Assembly: GCA_017534965.1 (NCBI GenBank)
Contig: JAFXVA010000008.1
Location: 75,409-139,408 of the forward strand
Length of the DNA stretch: 64,000 bases
Source of the DNA: Elusimicrobiaceae bacterium
GTDB lineage: Bacteria > Elusimicrobiota > Elusimicrobia > Elusimicrobiales > Elusimicrobiaceae
Direction: 5' to 3'
Within the stretch, counting starts at the first letter, position 1, and each line of letters begins with the position of its first letter. The notes under the pieces are model-generated. The model ran no database searches. It worked only from the letters and a program-made list of their open reading frames with translations, and was not told the DNA's origin. The translations under genes were made by a program, and so were the position numbers. Shown piece by piece: positions 10,709 to 61,524 of the stretch.

Positions 10709-10786
<78 letters not shown>

Positions 10787-10901: not shown

Positions 10902-12581
10902 ATGGCTTTTAAAATTGAACAATGTTCTGTTTTACAAAAACATAGACTTAGTTATAAACCTGTTTTACCTAAAGTTTTACAAAAAGGTCCGGCTGGTGTT
11001 GTTGCCGTATATGGCAAAGCAACAAAAAGCGTGGCTGACCAAGCTGCTGTTAAAAAAATGTTCCCTAACACTTATGGGATGCCGCAAATTTCTTTTAAGG
11101 CCGGAACAAATAAAAATATTACCAAAAAAGCAGTGCGTGTAGCCGTTGTTTTATCCGGCGGACAAGCACCCGGCGGGCATAATGTTATTGCCGGTATTTT
11201 AGATGGCCTTAAAAAAGCAAACAGTAAAAATAAACTCTTTGGTTTTATTGGCGGGCCTAGCGGTATTTTGGAAAATAAATTTATTGAAATTACACCAAAA
11301 CTTATGGCTGATTACAGAAACACCGGCGGTTTTGATATGATTCAATCCGGCCGCACAAAAATTGAAACTGCCCAGCAACTTGCTACAGCAAAAGAAAATA
11401 TTTTGAAAAATAAAATTGACGCTTTAGTTATTATCGGTGGTGATGATTCTAACACCAATGCCGGTATTATTGCCGAATATTTTAAACAACAAAAAATTGA
11501 TACGAGCGTTATCGGCGTGCCTAAGACTATTGACGGCGATTTGAAAAATGAACATATTGAAACTTCCTTTGGTTTTGATACCGCAACAAAAATCTATTCC
11601 GAAATGGTGGGCAATATTTGCCGCGATGTAAACTCCGCAAGAAAATATTGGCACTTTATCCGCTTGATGGGTAGAAGCGCTTCCCACATTGCTTTGGAAG
11701 TTGCTTTTAAAACTCACCCCAATATCGTTTTAATCGGTGAAGAAGTTTTAGCAAAGAAAATGACTCTTGCCCAAATTGTTGATAATCTTGCTAAAGTGGT
11801 TGTGGCTAGAGCAAAAGATGAAAAGAACTTCGGGGTTGTTTTAGTGCCGGAAGGTTTAATTGAATTTATACCTGAAATGAAGGCCCTTATTGCTGCTTTA
11901 AATGATTTACTTGCTCAAAATGAAAAACAAATCAATGCTTGCAAATCTTTTGAAGAAAAAAAGAAATTTATTATTTCAAAATTACCGGCAAATTTAGCAA
12001 AACTTATGGCTTCCTTGCCAAGCAATATTGCAGCGCAACTTATGCTTGAAAGGGACCCACACGGAAATGTGCAAGTTTCTTTAATTGAGACGGAAAAATT
12101 GCTTGTTGAAATGTTAAAAACTAAACTTGCCGAACTTAAAAAGCAAGGCAAATATAATGGTAAATTTTCCGCCATTATGCACTTCTTTGGTTATGAGGGG
12201 AGATGCGGCGTTCCATCCGCCTTTGATGCAAATTATACTTATGCCTTGGGATATAATGCAAGCGTGCTTGCTTTAAATAAATGTAGTGGTTATTTATCTT
12301 CCGTTAAAAATCTTGTTAAAAAACCGCAAGATTGGCAATGTGGCGGTATTCCTTTGACTATGATGATGAATATGGAAAGAAGAAACGGAAAAGAAAAACC
12401 CGTTATCAAAAAAGCCCTTGTTGAACTTAAAGGCCAGCCGTTTAAAGTTCTTTGCGCCCACAGAGAAGTTTGGGCCAAGACGGAAAGTTATGTTTTCCCT
12501 GGACCTATCCAATATTACGGACCGGCAGAAATTACGGATATTACAACCTATACCCTTAGGTTTGAACATCTAAAAAAATAG
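10902..12581 (+). CDS. pfp: diphosphate--fructose-6-phosphate 1-phosphotransferase (PPi-dependent phosphofructokinase, long type)
   Basis: 559 aa with GGDDSNT (Asp typical of PPi-PFK rather than GGDGS), PKTIDGD and MGR motifs. Confidence 0.9.
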   Translation: MAFKIEQCSVLQKHRLSYKPVLPKVLQKGPAGVVAVYGKATKSVADQAAVKKMFPNTYGMPQISFKAGTNKNITKKAVRVAVVLSGGQAPGGHNVIAGILDGLKKANSKNKLFGFIGGPSGILENKFIEITPKLMADYRNTGGFDMIQSGRTKIETAQQLATAKENILKNKIDALVIIGGDDSNTNAGIIAEYFKQQKIDTSVIGVPKTIDGDLKNEHIETSFGFDTATKIYSEMVGNICRDVNSARKYWHFIRLMGRSASHIALEVAFKTHPNIVLIGEEVLAKKMTLAQIVDNLAKVVVARAKDEKNFGVVLVPEGLIEFIPEMKALIAALNDLLAQNEKQINACKSFEEKKKFIISKLPANLAKLMASLPSNIAAQLMLERDPHGNVQVSLIETEKLLVEMLKTKLAELKKQGKYNGKFSAIMHFFGYEGRCGVPSAFDANYTYALGYNASVLALNKCSGYLSSVKNLVKKPQDWQCGGIPLTMMMNMERRNGKEKPVIKKALVELKGQPFKVLCAHREVWAKTESYVFPGPIQYYGPAEITDITTYTLRFEHLKK

Positions 12582-12600
12582 TACTTAATTATTTGAAAAA

Positions 12601-12635
12601 GAAAACCCTGAGTAAAAAACACTCGGGGTTTTTTG
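12601..12635 (+). terminator. rho-independent terminator of pfp
   Basis: AACCCTGAGT / ACTCGGGGTT hairpin followed by TTTT. Confidence 0.75.
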
Positions 12636-12642
12636 TTATAAT
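12634..12642 (+). promoter_or_regulatory. extended -10 element (TGTTATAAT), candidate promoter of leader RNA copy A
   Basis: TGnTATAAT directly after the pfp terminator. Confidence 0.4.
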
Positions 12643-12648
12643 AGAAAC

Positions 12649-12875
12649 ATAAGCAAATTTTGCTTATAAAAATTTAATCTGTTTTTGGGCCGTAATACGG
12701 ACTTGGTTTTTATTAAAAACCTCGCGCTAAACCAAAAACAGCCAGTTTAGGCGTATTATTTTTTCAGCCGATCCCTGAAAGATAATATGCCGAATATCTG
12801 TTATCTTTTGATAACAGATTACGGCTGTTATTGGTAGAGAAGTTTAGCGCGACTCGCCATTAGTAGCCGTTTTTT
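12649..12875 (+). promoter_or_regulatory. candidate cis-regulatory leader RNA (riboswitch-like attenuator), copy A
   Basis: No ORF. Nested stems P1 12722-12732/12842-12852 and P2 12737-12743/12823-12829, with internal hairpins. Competing terminator 12821-12834/12857-12870 plus T5. Homologous architecture at 29245-29545. Confidence 0.6.
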
Positions 12876-12911
12876 ATGCTCCCGAAACAGAATAATTAAC
12901 GGAGTATAAAA

Positions 12912-13463
12912 ATGAAAAAGAATAAAGGTTTCACTTTGATTGAAGTTCTTGTAGTTGTTTTAATAATCGGTATTTTAGCAGCAATTGCTGTGCCAAAATA
13001 TCAATATGCCGTTTTAAAAACTAAATATCATACCATAATGGATATGGCAAAAGCAGTAAAAGAATTTCAGGAAGTTTATTATATGGCAAACGGAAAATAT
13101 GCCGAGCATTTCAGCGAACTTGATTTTTCCTTACCCAGCGGAGGAGAGATAGGTCATTTTGTCGGTGCAAATAACGGAACTGCCGCTGTTAATAATTTAG
13201 CCCAATATGAAGCTATGTTTTTTGATGGCGGAAATAAGGTTATTGTCCTTTTTCCTAATCAAGTAATTGGTTTAGTATTAAAAGATGGTAATAGGTTTAT
13301 GGACTATAATTTAAGATTAAACAATATAAATATGTGGAACGGTGCAAGGGCTTTATGTGCCGCTTGGGGAACAAGCCAAGGTGAAAAACTCTGCAGGGAT
13401 TTGTCGCAAAAGCCGGAAACTTGCGGTGTAGGCGGAAGCAGATATACTTGTAGGTTGTTTTAA
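12912..13463 (+). CDS. pilin-like protein with prepilin-type N-terminal cleavage/methylation signal
   Basis: MKKNKGFTLIEVLVVVLIIGILAAIAVPKYQ. C-terminal Cys pairs. Confidence 0.85.
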   Translation: MKKNKGFTLIEVLVVVLIIGILAAIAVPKYQYAVLKTKYHTIMDMAKAVKEFQEVYYMANGKYAEHFSELDFSLPSGGEIGHFVGANNGTAAVNNLAQYEAMFFDGGNKVIVLFPNQVIGLVLKDGNRFMDYNLRLNNINMWNGARALCAAWGTSQGEKLCRDLSQKPETCGVGGSRYTCRLF

Positions 13464-13467
13464 TATT

Positions 13468-13497
13468 AAAAGCCCTCAAACAATTGAGGGCTTTTTT
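13468..13497 (+). terminator. rho-independent terminator
   Basis: AAAAGCCCTCAA / TTGAGGGCTTTT hairpin followed by a T-run. Confidence 0.8.
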
Positions 13498-29244: not shown

Positions 29245-29545
29245 TGCTAAAATAATTTTAGCAGAAAAAATTTAGGAGAAAATTTTTAATGTAGGTCTTA
29301 AAAGAGGCCTAAAACAATTTTAAGCATTTTTGGAACCTTGTTTTTTTAGAACAAGGAGAACTTTTGAGAAATCAAAAGAACTAAGCGGTCCAAAAACAGC
29401 TCGTATTTGAGGCACGCAGGAACTTGGCTGATCCCCTTGATTTTGCGTGCCGAGTGTTTGCCGTTCTTATATTACTAAGAGCGGCAAACCACGGCTGTTG
29501 TATTTGGGTGTCCCGCTTAGTGCCCTTATACGACAGCCGTTTTTT
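29245..29545 (+). promoter_or_regulatory. candidate cis-regulatory leader RNA (riboswitch-like attenuator), copy B
   Basis: Same architecture as 12649-12875 with different stem sequences: P1 29380-29388/29513-29521, P2 29395-29401/29493-29499, P3 29411-29418/29444-29451, P4 29456-29463/29482-29489. Terminator 29491-29508/29523-29540 plus T-run. Confidence 0.6.
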
Positions 29546-29585
29546 ATTCGCAGTATTTGTTGCAAGGTTCCATATAGGAGAAATT

Positions 29586-31838
29586 ATGAAAAATGAAACA
29601 ATAAATATTTGTTTTGCAACAGATAATAACTACGCAAAATATATGGGACTTGCGCTAATGTCAATTTTAAAAAGCGCAAATAAAGAAGATAAATTACACT
29701 TTTTTATCTTGGATAATCAAATAAAACAAGAAGAAAAAGACAAAATTGCCACCCTTAAAAAAATAAAAGATTTTGAGATAACTTATATCTCTATAAACGA
29801 TGAGATATTTAAAAATTGCCATGCAAATCAAAAAGGGCTAAGCCTTACTGCTTTTGCCCGCTTTTTAGTGCCTTGGCTTATTGAGGTTGATAAACTGCTT
29901 TATTTAGATTGCGATATTTTTGTTCGCAAATCGCTTGCGCCTTTATTTTCATCCTTGAAAACAGACTTATTTAAGTTAAAAATTAAAATTATCTCTATTT
30001 ATTATTTAGCATTTTTTCTTTTACTTCAATTTTCCAGAATAGCCATTCTTAAAATATCTTCAAATTATTTCCAAGAATTAACAGGAAAAGATATTTTGCT
30101 TTCTTTTTTAAACGGCCTTCGTTTTGATTTTTATATACTTGCTTTGCTGCTGTTTCCTTTATTTATTTTGTTTATGCTACCTTATAAAAAGAAATTTATT
30201 ATAAATATTTTCCATATAGTATTTTCTATATTATTTCTCTGTTGCACCCTGTTTTGCGTTGGCGATATTATCTTTTTTATGTTCTTTAACAATCATATAG
30301 GCATAGAAGTGTTAACAAGTTTTACTCATTTTGGGCTTTTTACGCAGATGGCTTTTCAAAATTATTTTTATATTACTATTCCTTTAATTTTATTTTTCGC
30401 CTTGTATTTATTTTTTGTATTTAAAAAAACAAACTCTTATGAACTAATTGTTAAAAACAATAAAAAATATATTATAAAAAGTTTTGTTTTTATCTTGTGT
30501 CTTATTCTGTTAATGCCTTTAATGTTGCGCGGGAAACTAGAGATTAGAGGTAAAAATCTTGGCACCATGGATGCACAAATTTTGGGTAAAGACAGAACCG
30601 CCGACCTTATTTTAAACGGACCTTTTAATACTTATGAAGCTGTTAGAAAATCTTCCAAAAGAAAATTATATTTTAAAGAAGAAGATTTAAAAATAAAACA
30701 AAATCCCTCTTATAATATACCAGATGAAAATTACCCCTTTGAAAAGAAATTTGTAAATTTTAATTCAAAAAATGATAATTATAATTTTGTTTTACTTGTT
30801 TTGGAAAGTTTTGATCCTCTTTTACTGGAACAATACCCCCAAGATATACCTAATATCATAAAAATAAAGGAAGATGGTTTGTTTTTCTCCAATTTTTATT
30901 CTTCCGGTATGCGTTCTTTGCTGGGAATAACCGGAACAATATTTTCTCTGCCTTATGTATGGGGTATGCCTAATATGACTAATGGGCTTGGGGCAAAAAA
31001 CCTTTCCCGTTTGGCTCATTATTTTAACAATAAAGGGTATGAAACATTTTCTTTTACTACAGATATTGCCAGTGCAGATAAAGCAAATGAAATGGCAAAA
31101 TATCAAGGTTTTAACCAATTTTATGCTAAGGAAGATATCCCCGTAAAAAAGAAATACCCTCTCTTTAATAAAGGTTTTGATTGGGAAGGTTTTGAATTTA
31201 TTTTAGATAAAATAAACAATACAAACAAAAACTTTTTTGTTTACTTTTTTACTTCCAGTATGCACTCGCCTTACAATATTCTTTTAAGTGAAGAACATAA
31301 AAAATATCCGCAAGATACACAAGAACATCAATTTGTAAACAGAGCAATTTATGTTGATAGTTCTATAGGTAATTTCTTTGAAAAAGCAAAAAAAGAACTT
31401 TGGTTTGATAAAACAATTTTCTTTATTTTGCCGGACCATAGAGCCGTTTTAGCAAATAAAAACAACAGCAATATAAATTTAACCGACCAAAAGTTTAAAT
31501 CTTTTTTAATAATTTATGGCAAGCCTATTAAAGCCGGCATTAATGATAAAATAGCCACACAAGAAGATATTTTGCCTACCTTACTTGATTTATTAAACAC
31601 AGAAGAAAGTTTTGCTTCTTCGGGAGAAAGTCTTTTTGATAAAAACAGAAGCGATACTAAATTTATCTACGAGGAAAACAAAAACACTATTCATATTATA
31701 AGCCCGACAATAAAAGAACATTTTAGCGAAGAAACTCTTACCGATTTTGATAAGTTAACCCCTTTGGAAAAAGAGGCCCTAAAATATAATGAGGCAATTT
31801 ATAATGCCTTAAAAAATAATTCTTGGAAAAAGAAATAA
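29586..31838 (+). CDS. chimeric protein: N-terminal half of a family 8 glycosyltransferase fused to an LtaS/sulfatase-family membrane protein
   Basis: ATG at 29586 after AGGAG. Aa 1-113 are GT8-like (ICFATDNNY, DxD in LYLDCDIFV). From ~aa 124 there are 5 TM segments plus an extracellular sulfatase-type domain. The ORF-track start at 29424 is rejected because it lies in the leader RNA. Confidence 0.75.
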   Translation: MKNETINICFATDNNYAKYMGLALMSILKSANKEDKLHFFILDNQIKQEEKDKIATLKKIKDFEITYISINDEIFKNCHANQKGLSLTAFARFLVPWLIEVDKLLYLDCDIFVRKSLAPLFSSLKTDLFKLKIKIISIYYLAFFLLLQFSRIAILKISSNYFQELTGKDILLSFLNGLRFDFYILALLLFPLFILFMLPYKKKFIINIFHIVFSILFLCCTLFCVGDIIFFMFFNNHIGIEVLTSFTHFGLFTQMAFQNYFYITIPLILFFALYLFFVFKKTNSYELIVKNNKKYIIKSFVFILCLILLMPLMLRGKLEIRGKNLGTMDAQILGKDRTADLILNGPFNTYEAVRKSSKRKLYFKEEDLKIKQNPSYNIPDENYPFEKKFVNFNSKNDNYNFVLLVLESFDPLLLEQYPQDIPNIIKIKEDGLFFSNFYSSGMRSLLGITGTIFSLPYVWGMPNMTNGLGAKNLSRLAHYFNNKGYETFSFTTDIASADKANEMAKYQGFNQFYAKEDIPVKKKYPLFNKGFDWEGFEFILDKINNTNKNFFVYFFTSSMHSPYNILLSEEHKKYPQDTQEHQFVNRAIYVDSSIGNFFEKAKKELWFDKTIFFILPDHRAVLANKNNSNINLTDQKFKSFLIIYGKPIKAGINDKIATQEDILPTLLDLLNTEESFASSGESLFDKNRSDTKFIYEENKNTIHIISPTIKEHFSEETLTDFDKLTPLEKEALKYNEAIYNALKNNSWKKK

Positions 31839-35602: not shown

Positions 35603-35871
35603 ATAGAATATTTTAGCAAATATTTTTTGTTAGGTTTGCCGTATTTCCCTTTAACTCTTGTTTCTTGTAAAAAAATTTTTGTAAAGATTAAAATAATCTC
35701 ACAGAAAAAAACTAAAACCTTGCCCGAAAGAACATTTTTTGATAGAGTATATAAGAATCATTTCCAATGTTTATAAACGGGAAGGTTCTAATTCTTTCAA
35801 TAAGTAGATTCTCCCCCCTCTAAACCCTTGGAATGACGAATGTTATTTTAATCAAAATAAAAGGAAAGTTT

Positions 35872-37491
35872 ATGAAGAATAAAGGTTTTACTCTTATAGA
35901 GATATTAGTAGTTGTTTTAATTTTAGGTATTTTAACAGCTATTGCTTTACCTAAATATCAAACAGCAGTAGATAAATCCTCTTTTGCGGAATTAAATCTT
36001 GCTGCCAGAAATGTATCCCACGCCCAAGAAATTTTTCATTTACAAAATGGATATTACACTACAGATTTAGATGATTTAGCTATAAAACTTCCGGGAGGGG
36101 ACTTCCAACACACCTATGCTACTATAGGAAATCAAGAAGACTACAGCTATGTAAAAACAAGCAGACCAGGGTTAAACAATCATTGTGTATATTACTTTAA
36201 AAACAGCCAAAATTTCCCTGGGGAAATACATTGCGAAGCATTAAAAGATAATGATAGAGCTGCCCGTCTTTGCACAACTTTGGGCGGAGAAAGAATCCCC
36301 GGCAGTTTGACAGATAATTACAACACCTATGTCTTAAACGGATCGGGAAACGGCGTTTCAAGTTCCGTTGCTAATGCTATGAATAGTTTACAATGTTCTG
36401 AAGAGGAAACCAGCGGTAATAAATCTTGCCAAGTAACTAAATATGAAAACTCCTCCGTAAAAACAGTTTGCACTAAAAAGAACGATCCTAATACCTGTAA
36501 GCATTATATTTACGACAAAAATGCTTATACTTGGGAGTGCGACGCCTCTAAAAGTAAATTAGTGGATGGTTCTTGTATCCCTACCGCAACAGGAACCTAT
36601 TTAAAGAGATGGGACGAAGATGGCAACAGAATAGAAATGCAATGCGATAGTTTTGATGCAAATAAAAATGCCTGTTCCCAAATAGCAGAAAGAACTTACA
36701 ATGCTAACAGCACAAAAATAGAAGCAGACAGACGCTACTGCGCAGAATATGATGCAAACGGCGGATGCCTTGCTTATCAACAAAATAAAGGGTATGACTC
36801 CTTTGGCAATCTTAATAATTCAGATAGTGCCAGTTTAATGACTTCTAATGCTCAAGCAGGTTCTTTAGATTATTCAAACTCTACTACTAATTGGACCCAG
36901 GTTAATTGTGCAACAGTAGATAGTGACGGCTCTTGTCTTTCTTATAAAGACGGCTGGTTTACAACAAGTAATTGGGATGAGAATAAAAGAGAAACTTATA
37001 AAGAAATAAAATTCTGTAGCGCTGTAACAGCCGATAGAGAATGTGCTGAAGTTAAAAGCTATACAACTATGGAAGGTTCTTATAACGCTAACGGAAAACT
37101 TAATAATATAAGTGTTCAGGAGTGTAACGCAAAAGATGCTGCCGGCAACTGCACCAGCATTAAATCTTTAAAGAATACGGAATATACTTGGAACGGCCCT
37201 TCTAATAAAGCATCTGCAGAAGTGATTACTCACTGCTCTTCATACGATTCAAGCAATAATTGCACCCAGTATAAACCCGCAACAAGTACCTATAGAACTT
37301 TTACTGACGATTATAAAACGCAAACATCCTTTACACAAGTAACCTGTAATAAATATACAGGAACAAATTGCACCGGCGGTTGGAAAGTTGTTTATACTCC
37401 TATGGTTAACGGCAAAGATGATGTTGCTAATAGGGTAACAATAGATAATTGCAGCAACGTAAACACCACTACCGGCCAATGCGAAGATTAA
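35872..37491 (+). CDS. large pilin-like protein: prepilin-type N-terminus plus a Cys-pair repeat C-terminal region
   Basis: MKNKGFTLIEILVVVLILGILTAIALPKYQ, with ATG at 35872 after AAAGGAAAG. About 11 C-x(7-11)-C units from 36394 onward. Confidence 0.8.
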   Translation: MKNKGFTLIEILVVVLILGILTAIALPKYQTAVDKSSFAELNLAARNVSHAQEIFHLQNGYYTTDLDDLAIKLPGGDFQHTYATIGNQEDYSYVKTSRPGLNNHCVYYFKNSQNFPGEIHCEALKDNDRAARLCTTLGGERIPGSLTDNYNTYVLNGSGNGVSSSVANAMNSLQCSEEETSGNKSCQVTKYENSSVKTVCTKKNDPNTCKHYIYDKNAYTWECDASKSKLVDGSCIPTATGTYLKRWDEDGNRIEMQCDSFDANKNACSQIAERTYNANSTKIEADRRYCAEYDANGGCLAYQQNKGYDSFGNLNNSDSASLMTSNAQAGSLDYSNSTTNWTQVNCATVDSDGSCLSYKDGWFTTSNWDENKRETYKEIKFCSAVTADRECAEVKSYTTMEGSYNANGKLNNISVQECNAKDAAGNCTSIKSLKNTEYTWNGPSNKASAEVITHCSSYDSSNNCTQYKPATSTYRTFTDDYKTQTSFTQVTCNKYTGTNCTGGWKVVYTPMVNGKDDVANRVTIDNCSNVNTTTGQCED

Positions 37492-60333: not shown

Positions 60334-61524
60334 ATGCAAGCCCTAAAAATAACAGATAAAGTCTATTGGGTAGGCGCTATTGATTGGAATATCAGAGATT
60401 TCCACGGCTATACTACAGACGAAGGGACAACCTATAATGCTTTTCTTATTGTTGATGAAAAAATAGTTTTGGTTGATACCGTTAAACATGGCTTTTTTGA
60501 CCAAATGGCTGCGCGTATTAAAAGTGTTATAGGTGATAAAAAAATTGATATTCTTATTTCAAACCATTCTGAAATGGACCACACCGGCGTTATAAGAGAA
60601 ACTATTGCCGAGTTTAAACCTTCTAAAATCTATGCTTCTATGATGGGTGTTAAAACTTTACAGGAACATTTCGGCCTTATTGAAAACTTAGAGGGCGTTG
60701 CCGACGGCGCAGAAGTAAATATCGGCAAAGAAACTTTAGTTTTTATGGATTCAAAAATGCTGCACTGGCCGGAAAGCATGATTTGTTTAATGAAGAACGA
60801 AAACTTGCTTTTTTCTAATGACATTTTTGGTATGCACTATGCTTCAAACAAACATTTTGACGACGAAGTTCCGCAAGAAATTTGGTATAAAGAAGCAAAA
60901 AAATATTATGCCAATATCATTTTGCCTTATAGCAATATTGTTAAAGCGTTCTTGGCTAAAGTTAAAGCAAAAGGTCTTGCGCCGAAAATTATCTGCCCGG
61001 ACCACGGCATAATTTGGCGCAAAAACCCGCAACTTATTGTTGATTTATACGCCACCTTTGCCGAGCAAAAAGCCACCAAAAAAGCCCTTGTCATTTATGA
61101 TACTATGTGGGGCAGCACAGCCAAAATGGCAGCAAGTATTACCGACGGACTTTCAAGCAAAGGAATTGAAGTTAAAGAATTTTCTTTACGCGCTACAAAC
61201 AGAAGCGAAGTCGCTTCTGAAATTTTAGACAGCGCGGCTTTAATCGTTGGCACGCCGGTTTTAAATCAGGAAATGTATCCCTCACTCGGGGATACTTTAA
61301 CTTATTTAAAAGGACTTAAAAAAACAAATCTTTTAGGTATGGTTTTTGGCTCTTATGGTTGGAGTCCTATGGCAATTACAAATTTACAAAAATTTGTTGA
61401 AACTATGGGTGTTAAAATTGTCAAAGAACCTACAACAAGTAAATTTGTTCCGACGGAAGAAAAATTAAAAGAATGTTTTGAAGCCGGCGTTTTTATGGCA
61501 GAGGAAATTGGTAAAAATTTATGA
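60334..61524 (+). CDS. flavodiiron protein (FprA-type O2/NO reductase)
   Basis: Metallo-beta-lactamase-like N-domain with HSEMDH and a C-terminal flavodoxin domain (VIYDTMWGST). Confidence 0.9.
   Translation: MQALKITDKVYWVGAIDWNIRDFHGYTTDEGTTYNAFLIVDEKIVLVDTVKHGFFDQMAARIKSVIGDKKIDILISNHSEMDHTGVIRETIAEFKPSKIYASMMGVKTLQEHFGLIENLEGVADGAEVNIGKETLVFMDSKMLHWPESMICLMKNENLLFSNDIFGMHYASNKHFDDEVPQEIWYKEAKKYYANIILPYSNIVKAFLAKVKAKGLAPKIICPDHGIIWRKNPQLIVDLYATFAEQKATKKALVIYDTMWGSTAKMAASITDGLSSKGIEVKEFSLRATNRSEVASEILDSAALIVGTPVLNQEMYPSLGDTLTYLKGLKKTNLLGMVFGSYGWSPMAITNLQKFVETMGVKIVKEPTTSKFVPTEEKLKECFEAGVFMAEEIGKNL

Follow-up and report, generated by a model that had tools for sequence, protein, structure and literature searches.

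The window analyzed here is a 64,000-nt stretch of DNA from an Elusimicrobiaceae bacterium (assembly GCA_017534965.1, contig JAFXVA010000008.1, positions 75,409–139,408), and the element of interest is a structured RNA leader, copy A, located immediately upstream of a pilin-like gene. A pfp-like gene (PFK domain) ends at position 12581 and is followed directly by its own terminator hairpin (12597–12637); the pilin gene starts at the ATG at 12912 and likewise has a terminator of its own (13468–13495, terminator scan). An earlier note on this DNA had proposed that the intervening region is an ORF-free, transcription-attenuating leader. No open reading frame (ORF) of 50 or more amino acids lies between the pfp end and the pilin ATG, and every helix claimed for copy A was found in place by an inverted-repeat listing and a sequence check. 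These comprise the hairpin at 12705–12721 (hp3), P1 (11 of 11 bp), P2 (12737–12743 with 12823–12829, extendable to 12731–12743 with 12823–12835, where 12 of 13 positions pair), P4 (10 of 10 bp), and the terminator (12821–12834 with 12857–12870, followed by TTTTT). P3 is also present, at a greater length than had been given: it comprises 14 + 3 bp and includes two G·U pairs. Positions 12645–12882 probably constitute the 5′ leader of the pilin mRNA.

Five features of copy A were absent from the earlier description: the helix P0, the hairpins hp1 and hp2, a promoter-like box, a GATC in the P3 loop, and an anti-Shine–Dalgarno (anti-SD) helix (Table 1). In P0, the segment seg1 (CTGTTTTTGG) pairs over 10 of 10 bp with 12732–12741 (CCAAAAACAG, part of seg2) and competes with P2. 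The 232-nt RNA of copy A has a predicted folding energy of −75.8 kcal/mol, compared with −46.6 ± 4.5 kcal/mol for 200 dinucleotide-shuffled sequences (z = −6.5), none of which was as stable.

Copies of the leader in Elusimicrobiota

BLASTN of the copy A leader against the window returned no second copy. A covariance model (CM) built from the window and a related locus, L001, matched 29332–29552 at 49.5 bits, establishing as real the second copy (copy B) that had been suggested. Copies A and B have in common the blocks CCAAAAACAGC, ACGGCTGTT, and AGCCGTTTTTTAT and the P3-loop GATC; the sequences of P1, P3, and P4 differ between them yet still pair. The gene after copy B (29586–31838, ATG at 29586) encodes a 750-aa protein with glycosyltransferase family 8 (GT8) and sulfatase domains (Pfam); its N-terminus is the GT8 portion, its middle appears by eye to be hydrophobic and likely membrane-spanning, and its sulfatase-type domain resembles lipoteichoic acid synthase. 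Two other sites in the window were considered and rejected. One, the region 35603–35871, which precedes another pilin-like gene and was tried as copy B, has no similarity to the leader and no unusual stability (z = −0.15); that gene (ATG 35872, within 35603–37491) encodes a 539-aa prepilin-type protein with a weak Pilin_GH match and has no leader copy. The other is a CM match of 21.9 bits at 61196–61355, which falls within a flavoprotein ORF and is without the anchor motifs. A search of the rest of the window for a sequence complementary in trans to seg0 plus seg1 found none.

Beyond the window, a pattern scan over one genome per species (AAACAGC-N65-95-CGGCTGT-N30-45-GCCGTTTT) yielded at least 119 stretches, the great majority of them from Elusimicrobiota. 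Among the 80 loci listed, 65 match the CM and carry the labels Elusimicrobiaceae, Elusimicrobium, Parelusimicrobium, Elusimicrobiales, or Elusimicrobiota, along with three contigs that are probably mis-binned; the remaining 15 are chance matches from other phyla with no CM match. High-scoring leader copies followed by Elusimicrobia-type genes occur in L017 (labeled uncultured Spirochaetes UMGS352) and L060 (labeled Muribaculaceae), which are probably mis-binned or mislabeled Elusimicrobia contigs. In total, the pattern scan and the CM together identify at least 85 copies, the two in the window and at least 83 others, in 32 Elusimicrobiota assemblies. Two metagenome-assembled genomes (MAGs) have 12 or more copies each. 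The CM search recommended in the earlier note thus yielded homologs, 84 of which retain the helices with heavy compensatory change. The leader family is probably multi-copy and Elusimicrobiota-wide; its members are approximately 210–260 nt long, and each would be transcribed from a promoter of its own.

Many of the 81 anchored copies carry a box, TTTTTT(A/G)TTATA(A/C)T, approximately 7 nt before the motif A(c/a)AATTTnAT-CTGTTTTTGGAA, and this conserved promoter-like box suggests that each copy is its own transcription unit. In copies that lack hp1, we infer a transcription start approximately 10 nt before seg1; in a subset of copies, A and B included, hp1 is inserted between the box and seg0, and transcription of copy A would begin at approximately 12648. 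Across the family hp1 is 83.5% paired with many gaps, and some copies lack it altogether. Past the U-tract, a same-strand ORF begins within tens of nucleotides, at fixed orientation and distance, and 56 of the 78 evaluable copies (72%) have a prepilin N-terminal motif downstream on the same strand. Other downstream genes encode zinc-ribbon membrane proteins, DUF805 proteins, a DMT-family protein, GT9 and GT8 glycosyltransferases, the GT8–sulfatase fusion of copy B, tetratricopeptide repeat proteins, and one EcoRI-type methylase. One small zinc-ribbon membrane protein (MALIKCKECGK...) recurs after the leader in L060 (5621–5882), L054 (2657–2904), and L018 (7466–7716), and so represents a conserved non-pilin target in three distant genomes, among them that of the cultured Elusimicrobium posterum.

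No conserved leader peptide was found: an ATG-initiated ORF of at least 8 codons with a Shine–Dalgarno (SD)-like motif occurs in only 10 of 81 leaders, at scattered positions and encoding unrelated peptides. A ribosome-mediated attenuator, which would call for a conserved short ORF with a ribosome-binding site (RBS) overlapping segment 1, was rejected on these grounds.

Close relatives of copy A indicate how the leader changes over short evolutionary distances. The pilin gene belongs to an orthologous series present in metagenomes. In L001, which has the same pfp–pilin synteny and a pilin 82% identical to that of the window, the leader differs from copy A at 12 positions, all of which fall in loops or unpaired regions or are exchanges between G·U and A-U. 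In L010–L012 the leader is 100% identical to copy A while the pilin is only 90% identical, implying that the leader is under stronger constraint than its gene. In the same three loci the adjoining pfp terminator region (window 12582–12640) is wholly different, by replacement or indel. Pilin orthologs of 62–79% identity lie at other loci with unrelated upstream sequence, and no divergent leaders were found there. Three of these (74–79%) have other upstream regions rich in inverted repeats (L008 1–185, L009 287–686, L013 1–317), such as the long inverted repeat TCCGTCCTAC...GTAGGACGAAGA in L009; these are not related to the present family and may be different leaders. At the other side of pfp, the window has a tRNA gene just upstream (10712–10785, minus strand), and the corresponding side in L001 (1–760) carries a large serine recombinase gene (Resolvase/Recombinase/Zn_ribbon_recom); an integrated element may be present at the tRNA in L001.

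Table 1. Coordinates of the leader features in the window, copy A first and then copy B.
Feature	Position	Strand	Sequence and remarks
Promoter-like T-run with extended −10 (putative)	12629–12642	+	TTTTTTGTTATAAT; read from the sequence
hp1, optional 5′ hairpin, subset of family only	12649–12667	+	Inverted repeat; covaries, often absent
seg0	12668–12678	+	AAAAATTTAAT; conserved, family consensus A(c/a)AATTTnAT; unpaired in both predicted folds
seg1, P0 5′ arm, proposed anti-antiterminator	12679–12688	+	CTGTTTTTGG
hp2	12690–12700	+	CCGT AAT ACGG; 97.8% paired in family; compensatory change at 4/4 pairs
hp3	12705–12721	+	GGTTTTT ATT AAAAACC; 94.7% paired in family; compensatory change at 7/7 pairs
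P1 5′ arm	12722–12732	+	TCGCGCTAAAC; sequence differs in each copy; 11/11 with 12842–12852
seg2	12732–12743	+	CCAAAAACAGCC; partner seg1 (P0) or seg3 (P2); >90% sequence conservation; P2a 99.1% paired
P3 hairpin	12750–12791	+	7-nt apical loop CC-GATC-C, palindrome 12770–12773; 17/17 pairs covary
P4 hairpin	12796–12819	+	ATCTGTTATC TTTT GATAACAGAT; 12796–12805 with 12810–12819; 96.2% paired in family; 9/9 pairs covary
seg3	12821–12834	+	ACGGCTGTTATTGG; P2 3′ arm or terminator 5′ arm; ACGGCTGTT nearly invariant
P1 3′ arm	12842–12852	+	GTTTAGCGCGA; inside terminator apical loop
seg4, terminator 3′ arm	12857–12875	+	CCATTAGTAGCCGT; includes U-tract 12871–12875; GCCGTTTTT nearly invariant
Anti-SD helix after terminator	12871–12914	+	12871–12882 with 12901–12912; 12 nt, 92% complementary
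Gene proposed to be regulated	12912–13463	+	183-aa prepilin-type protein; Pfam N_methyl, E = 2.6e-10
Copy B, whole	29292–29545	+	CM matches 49.5–58.4 bits; fold z = −7.6
Copy B hp1	29292–29311
Copy B seg1	29325–29333
Copy B hp2	29336–29356
Copy B hp3	29361–29378
Copy B P1	29380–29388		With 29513–29521
Copy B seg2	29390–29400
Copy B P3	29411–29451		GATC at 29430–29433
Copy B P4	29456–29489
Copy B seg3	29491–29508
Copy B seg4	29523–29540		U-tract to 29545

Covariation and folding of two exclusive structures

The copies were aligned to the antiterminator fold (model R2) and, separately, to the terminator fold (model R1). In the antiterminator fold, 92.4% of 5060 pair cells hold standard pairs, compared with 65.8% when partners were shuffled and approximately 40% when partners were slid by 1–3 columns, and two-sided changes occur at 61 of 66 pairs. 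None of 500 shuffles reached the observed value on any of five measures, and the terminator/P0 fold gave the same result. P1, where the evidence is plainest, joins approximately 11 nt on the 5′ side of seg2 to the terminator apical loop and is 9–13 bp long, with sequences unrelated between copies; it is 91% paired, with Watson–Crick types dominating each column and three or four types per column. Independently of any alignment, the best contiguous P1 helix averages 9.8 bp over 78 copies, compared with 5.8 bp for shuffled arms. P0 is 97.7% paired across the family, with both sides changed at 7 of its 10 pairs, and the terminator helices are 87–95% paired, with compensatory change in the upper stem. 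Thus, there is evolutionary support for both of the exclusive folds, P0 plus terminator and P1/P2 antiterminator, and the covariation that the earlier note had called for is present in each. In the family alignment, hp2 commonly reads CCGUAU-GNRGA-AUACGG or CCGUUU-AAG-AAACGG, and a GGAA follows seg1; purine RGAA motifs thus recur approximately 10 nt apart, after seg1 and in the hp2 loop, and could constitute a protein site or a tetraloop-like docking element.

Within paired columns, G·U cells outnumber A·C cells by 401 to 113, an asymmetry that places the structure on the sense RNA strand. This bears on whether the family is a dispersed repeat of the MITE (miniature inverted-repeat transposable element) or REP (repetitive extragenic palindromic) type with no function at the RNA level, an idea to which the multiple copies, conserved blocks, and hairpins lend some color. 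Such a repeat would not be expected to combine this strand-specific G·U tolerance with a fixed orientation and distance to the downstream ORF, nor to keep its helices by compensatory change while its sequences diverge completely, and no terminal inverted repeats or transposase are associated with the copies. We therefore rejected assignment to this class and regard the explanation as highly improbable.

Turning to the predicted structures, 76 copies were folded with ViennaRNA both as full-length leaders and as transcripts truncated before the terminator 3′ arm. In the truncated transcripts the P1/P2 antiterminator is the minimum-energy fold in 73 of the 76 copies. At full length the terminator takes over in 61, in 59 of them together with P0, and the antiterminator is retained in 15. 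Copies A and B show the same predicted switch: truncated copy B RNA folds into P1 plus P2, and the full-length RNA into P0 plus terminator. P2 and the terminator had been described as mutually exclusive, and this switch logic recurs in nearly every copy folded. Copy A accordingly has two sequence hallmarks of an intrinsic-terminator attenuator—a hairpin (12821–12870) and T-run (12871–12875) that end 36 nt before the ATG, and a conserved alternative helix, P2, that shares terminator nucleotides through seg3. Homologs, covariation, and predicted fold switching together support the structured, cis-regulatory attenuating leader of the original proposal, a model that has to be enlarged by P0 with its 5′ anti-antiterminator arm and by the self-complementary P3 loop, which suggests RNA dimerization.

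A proposed relay and its candidate signals

We propose that the leaders control the downstream gene by conditional intrinsic termination, a reading to which we assign a probability of roughly 0.7. It would operate as a relay of four conserved segments, in which seg1 pairs with seg2 (P0), seg2 with seg3 (P2, together with the copy-specific P1), and seg3 with seg4 (the terminator, followed by the U-tract). During synthesis, the stable fold would be a P1/P2 rod capped by the P3/P4 three-way junction, blocking the terminator; once seg4 has been made, terminator plus P0 would become the stable fold. The order of these folds, antiterminator first and terminator with P0 later, points to a kinetic relay. 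Termination would require seg1 to retake seg2 while seg4 takes seg3, within the time that the polymerase spends on the U-tract, and read-through would be set by whether the antiterminator fold is held or released before the polymerase leaves. A trans-acting signal common to all copies—a small molecule, a protein, or a second RNA copy docking through the self-complementary P3 loop—could set this balance and so co-regulate dozens of genes for pilin-like and other surface proteins. The helices and their exclusivity, the covariation of both folds, the gene association, and the lack of a leader peptide or known family match are shown by the sequences; where transcription starts, whether termination occurs in vivo, which way regulation runs, and what the signal is are matters of inference.

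Several observations weigh against conditional termination by this relay. Of the window's two pilin-like genes, one has no leader, and closer pilin orthologs at other loci also lack it, so that the leader is not obligatory for this pilin gene family and not tied to this pilin lineage. P2 is invariant in sequence and has no compensatory support; it is assigned from complementarity, from a small number of one-sided changes, and from how the transcripts fold in prediction. Such invariance is expected if seg2 and seg3 must each satisfy two different partners. The P2/P3/P4 three-way junction is almost fully paired and offers no obvious ligand pocket. Finally, as far as geometry alone is concerned, P1 could form as a pseudoknot together with the terminator.

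Past the terminator of copy A, the U-tract and the next 7 nt (UUUUUAUGCUCC) are complementary to the region from the SD sequence to the start codon (GGAGUAUAAAAA), in a helix that encloses the SD sequence GGAG (12901–12904) and adjoins the ATG. Its single G·U pair is A-U in L001 (L001 2957–3003), and an anti-SD-like helix of other sequence occurs in approximately 15 of 35 pilin-linked copies (for example, CAUACGUUCUCC ... GGAGAACGUAUG). This arrangement suggests a second, translational layer of control. It also bears on the idea that the element is an independent small RNA gene, bounded by a promoter of its own and a constitutive terminator, with pilin expression arising only through leakage or from elsewhere. 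A complete unit of approximately 225 nt, from promoter to terminator, does exist, and most full-length copies have the terminator fold as their minimum-energy structure. However, an SD sequence and ATG of a same-strand gene lie approximately 25–60 nt past the U-tract in essentially all evaluable copies, leaving no room for another promoter; the antiterminator that overlaps the terminator is conserved and covarying; and the anti-SD helix ties the terminator tail to the RBS. A free-standing small RNA is therefore improbable.

If conditional termination is correct, the signal could be a small molecule, a protein, or RNA dimerization, to which we give roughly equal weight. In the first case the leader would be an ON-type riboswitch, in which a metabolite or second messenger bound at the P2/P3/P4 junction locks P1/P2 and permits read-through. 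The architecture resembles that of junction aptamers in which one strand of the closing helix also belongs to the terminator, and the junction has conserved positions that are unpaired or non-canonical (tttA-GG ... CC-GA-nt-GTTT). Many copies per genome precede surface genes, and the cyclic di-GMP (c-di-GMP)-II riboswitch, which turns on pilA1 by preventing termination, offers a precedent (PMC6366702). The junction strands, however, are mostly paired and leave little room for a pocket; conservation is highest in the expression-platform segments instead of the candidate pocket; no known aptamer matches; and the gene content points to no ligand. We consider a riboswitch possible but unlikely.

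A second possibility, which we hold just as tentatively, is a protein-controlled leader, in which an antiterminator or terminator protein or a NusG-type factor acting at seg0/seg1, the hp2 loop, or the base of P3 biases the choice between P0 and P2. The conservation of seg0, although it is unpaired in both folds and irrespective of whether hp1 precedes it, makes this segment a candidate binding site; the recurrent RGAA/GGAA motifs after seg1 and in the hp2 loop would suit such a factor, as would the regulon-like distribution, with 12 or more loci per genome that a single regulator could serve. Set against this, no candidate protein was identified, there is no strictly conserved repeated motif of the TRAP, PyrR, or CsrA type, and the Rfam models for JUMPstart and PyrR gave no match.

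The third candidate arises from the P3 apical loop, which contains a Watson–Crick palindrome of at least 6 nt in 66% of copies, compared with 9% of shuffled loops, and of at least 4 nt in 91%, compared with 46%. No such enrichment was seen in the apices of P4, hp2, or hp3. Eleven distinct hexamers occur (TAATTA, in 23 copies, TTATAA, TCATGA, TTCGAA, TTGCAA, TGTACA, CTATAG, TAGCTA, CGTACG, TCGCGA, and CGGCCG), indicating that palindromy is kept through compensatory change, the sequence signature of a kissing-loop element like the HIV-1 dimerization initiation site (DIS). The commonest loop class consists of 2 nt, the hexamer, and 1 nt; in other classes the 5′ flank is longer or the 3′ flank is missing. 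In copies A and B and in L001 the palindrome is limited to the 4-nt GATC, which three loop substitutions in L001 have spared. No intramolecular partner for the palindrome was found at a consistent position within the transcript, and by eye no covariation of the loop class with seg0 or hp2 was seen. Since the two nucleotides at the center of the palindrome are neighbors, which prevents them from pairing with each other in a single molecule, and the transcript has no second copy at a consistent place, the simplest reading is intermolecular loop–loop pairing.

These features could make the leader an RNA-only, dose-sensing switch, in which leaders pair through the P3 loop, possibly with P1 swapped, and the amount of leader from a locus feeds back on termination. 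The palindrome enrichment confined to P3, the eleven hexamers, the missing intramolecular partner, and the likeness of the commonest loop layout to the palindromic apical loop of the HIV-1 dimerization site all speak for pairing in trans. Conversely, many of the palindromes are made up entirely of A and U, so that their kissing would be weak, the palindrome of copies A and B is just four nucleotides long, and TAATTA is common to several loci of one genome, making specificity incomplete. Furthermore, P3 is present in both folds, so the link from dimerization to termination is a conjecture. We consider dose sensing unlikely on present evidence, and doubtful the specific scheme of an RNA homodimer in which a nascent leader docks through its P3 loop on a leader from the same locus or palindrome class, perhaps with exchange of P1 arms, to decide between termination and read-through. 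If true, each pilin paralog would sense its own transcript level without a protein or metabolite, and a large surface-protein repertoire would be subject to locus-specific bistable or self-limiting expression.

Comparison with known systems

The leader matches no known riboswitch class, in line with the first description, which had found no match either. At the gathering threshold, Rfam 15 detected only tRNAs, both in the window and in 18 further loci that contain approximately 25 copies. Scans by E-value of copies A and B and of L060 yielded only noise-level matches to unrelated families, outside or across the element, and membership of families including c-di-GMP-I/II, T-box, PyrR, JUMPstart, EAR, and Termite-flg/leu was not supported. 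A description of the family was found neither in the literature searched (Elusimicrobia, pilin, riboswitch, RNA motif) nor by word look-ups in two of the large surveys of bacterial RNA motifs (PMC5737381, PMC8040213). We conclude with high confidence that these sequences form a real family of attenuator-type leaders with the architecture given here, one that is apparently undescribed.

Leaders in which terminator, antiterminator, and anti-antiterminator compete include the trp-type 1:2, 2:3, 3:4 attenuators of E. coli and the pyr leader of B. subtilis, which is bound by PyrR. Like these, the Elusimicrobia leader has four segments with overlapping alternative pairings, a terminator directly before the ORF, and a 5′ segment that would sequester the antiterminator. 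Unlike them, it has no leader peptide and no PyrR or His/Trp-leader match beyond noise, and it possesses a copy-specific P1 with its 3′ arm in the terminator loop and a three-way junction capping the antiterminator. The pbuE adenine riboswitch is an ON-type three-way-junction riboswitch; its junction closing helix, too, shares its 3′ strand with the terminator 5′ arm, and in both cases the decision would be made kinetically during transcription. In the Elusimicrobia leader, by contrast, almost all of the junction is paired, no purine-riboswitch model matches, P0 acts as an extra predicted competitor, and a loop is palindromic.

Elusimicrobia have unusually large sets of pilin-like genes, and the leader family would be a common control element for much of this repertoire, along with some envelope glycosyltransferases and membrane proteins. 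It offers an orphan, riboswitch-like class with strong covariation support and a well-defined expression platform, and a switch in which, as is rarely the case, covariation reveals both of the alternative folds. Since cultured hosts exist, namely Elusimicrobium posterum and Parelusimicrobium proximum, the proposal is directly testable.

Palindromic kissing loops are known from HIV-1 DIS, where the palindrome is a hexamer, the oskar 3′ untranslated region, and the hatchet ribozyme, and functional RNA homodimers have rarely been documented in nature (PMC7357161). The P3 loop resembles these in being an apical loop with a self-complementary sequence of 4–6 nt and unpaired flanks, and in keeping its palindromy through change. 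It differs from them in being bacterial, cis-regulatory, and often A/U-rich, and its dimer is putative. We know of no precedent for a kissing-loop role in termination control; the family may offer a naturally occurring regulatory RNA of bacteria whose palindromic, putatively kissing loop resembles that of a retrovirus.

In Geobacter, GEMM-I/cyclic GMP-AMP (cGAMP) riboswitch regulons place many copies per genome before genes for extracellular and surface functions (PMC8835794). The Elusimicrobia family likewise deploys one RNA class in many copies per genome at surface-function genes, although its fold is unrelated and no GEMM model matches. In Clostridioides difficile, the c-di-GMP-II riboswitch Cdi-2-4 upstream of pilA1 switches the pilin on by preventing termination (PMC6366702). 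Here, too, the genes concern surface appendages, and the leader would terminate by default while an alternative fold permits pilin transcription; unlike Cdi-2-4, it has no Rfam match to c-di-GMP-I or -II, reaches 12 or more copies in each of two MAGs, and belongs to another phylum. The Elusimicrobia leader is a member of none of these families; its nearest counterpart in function is the c-di-GMP-II riboswitch on pilA1, and its nearest counterparts in architecture are the classical attenuators and the ON-type junction riboswitches.

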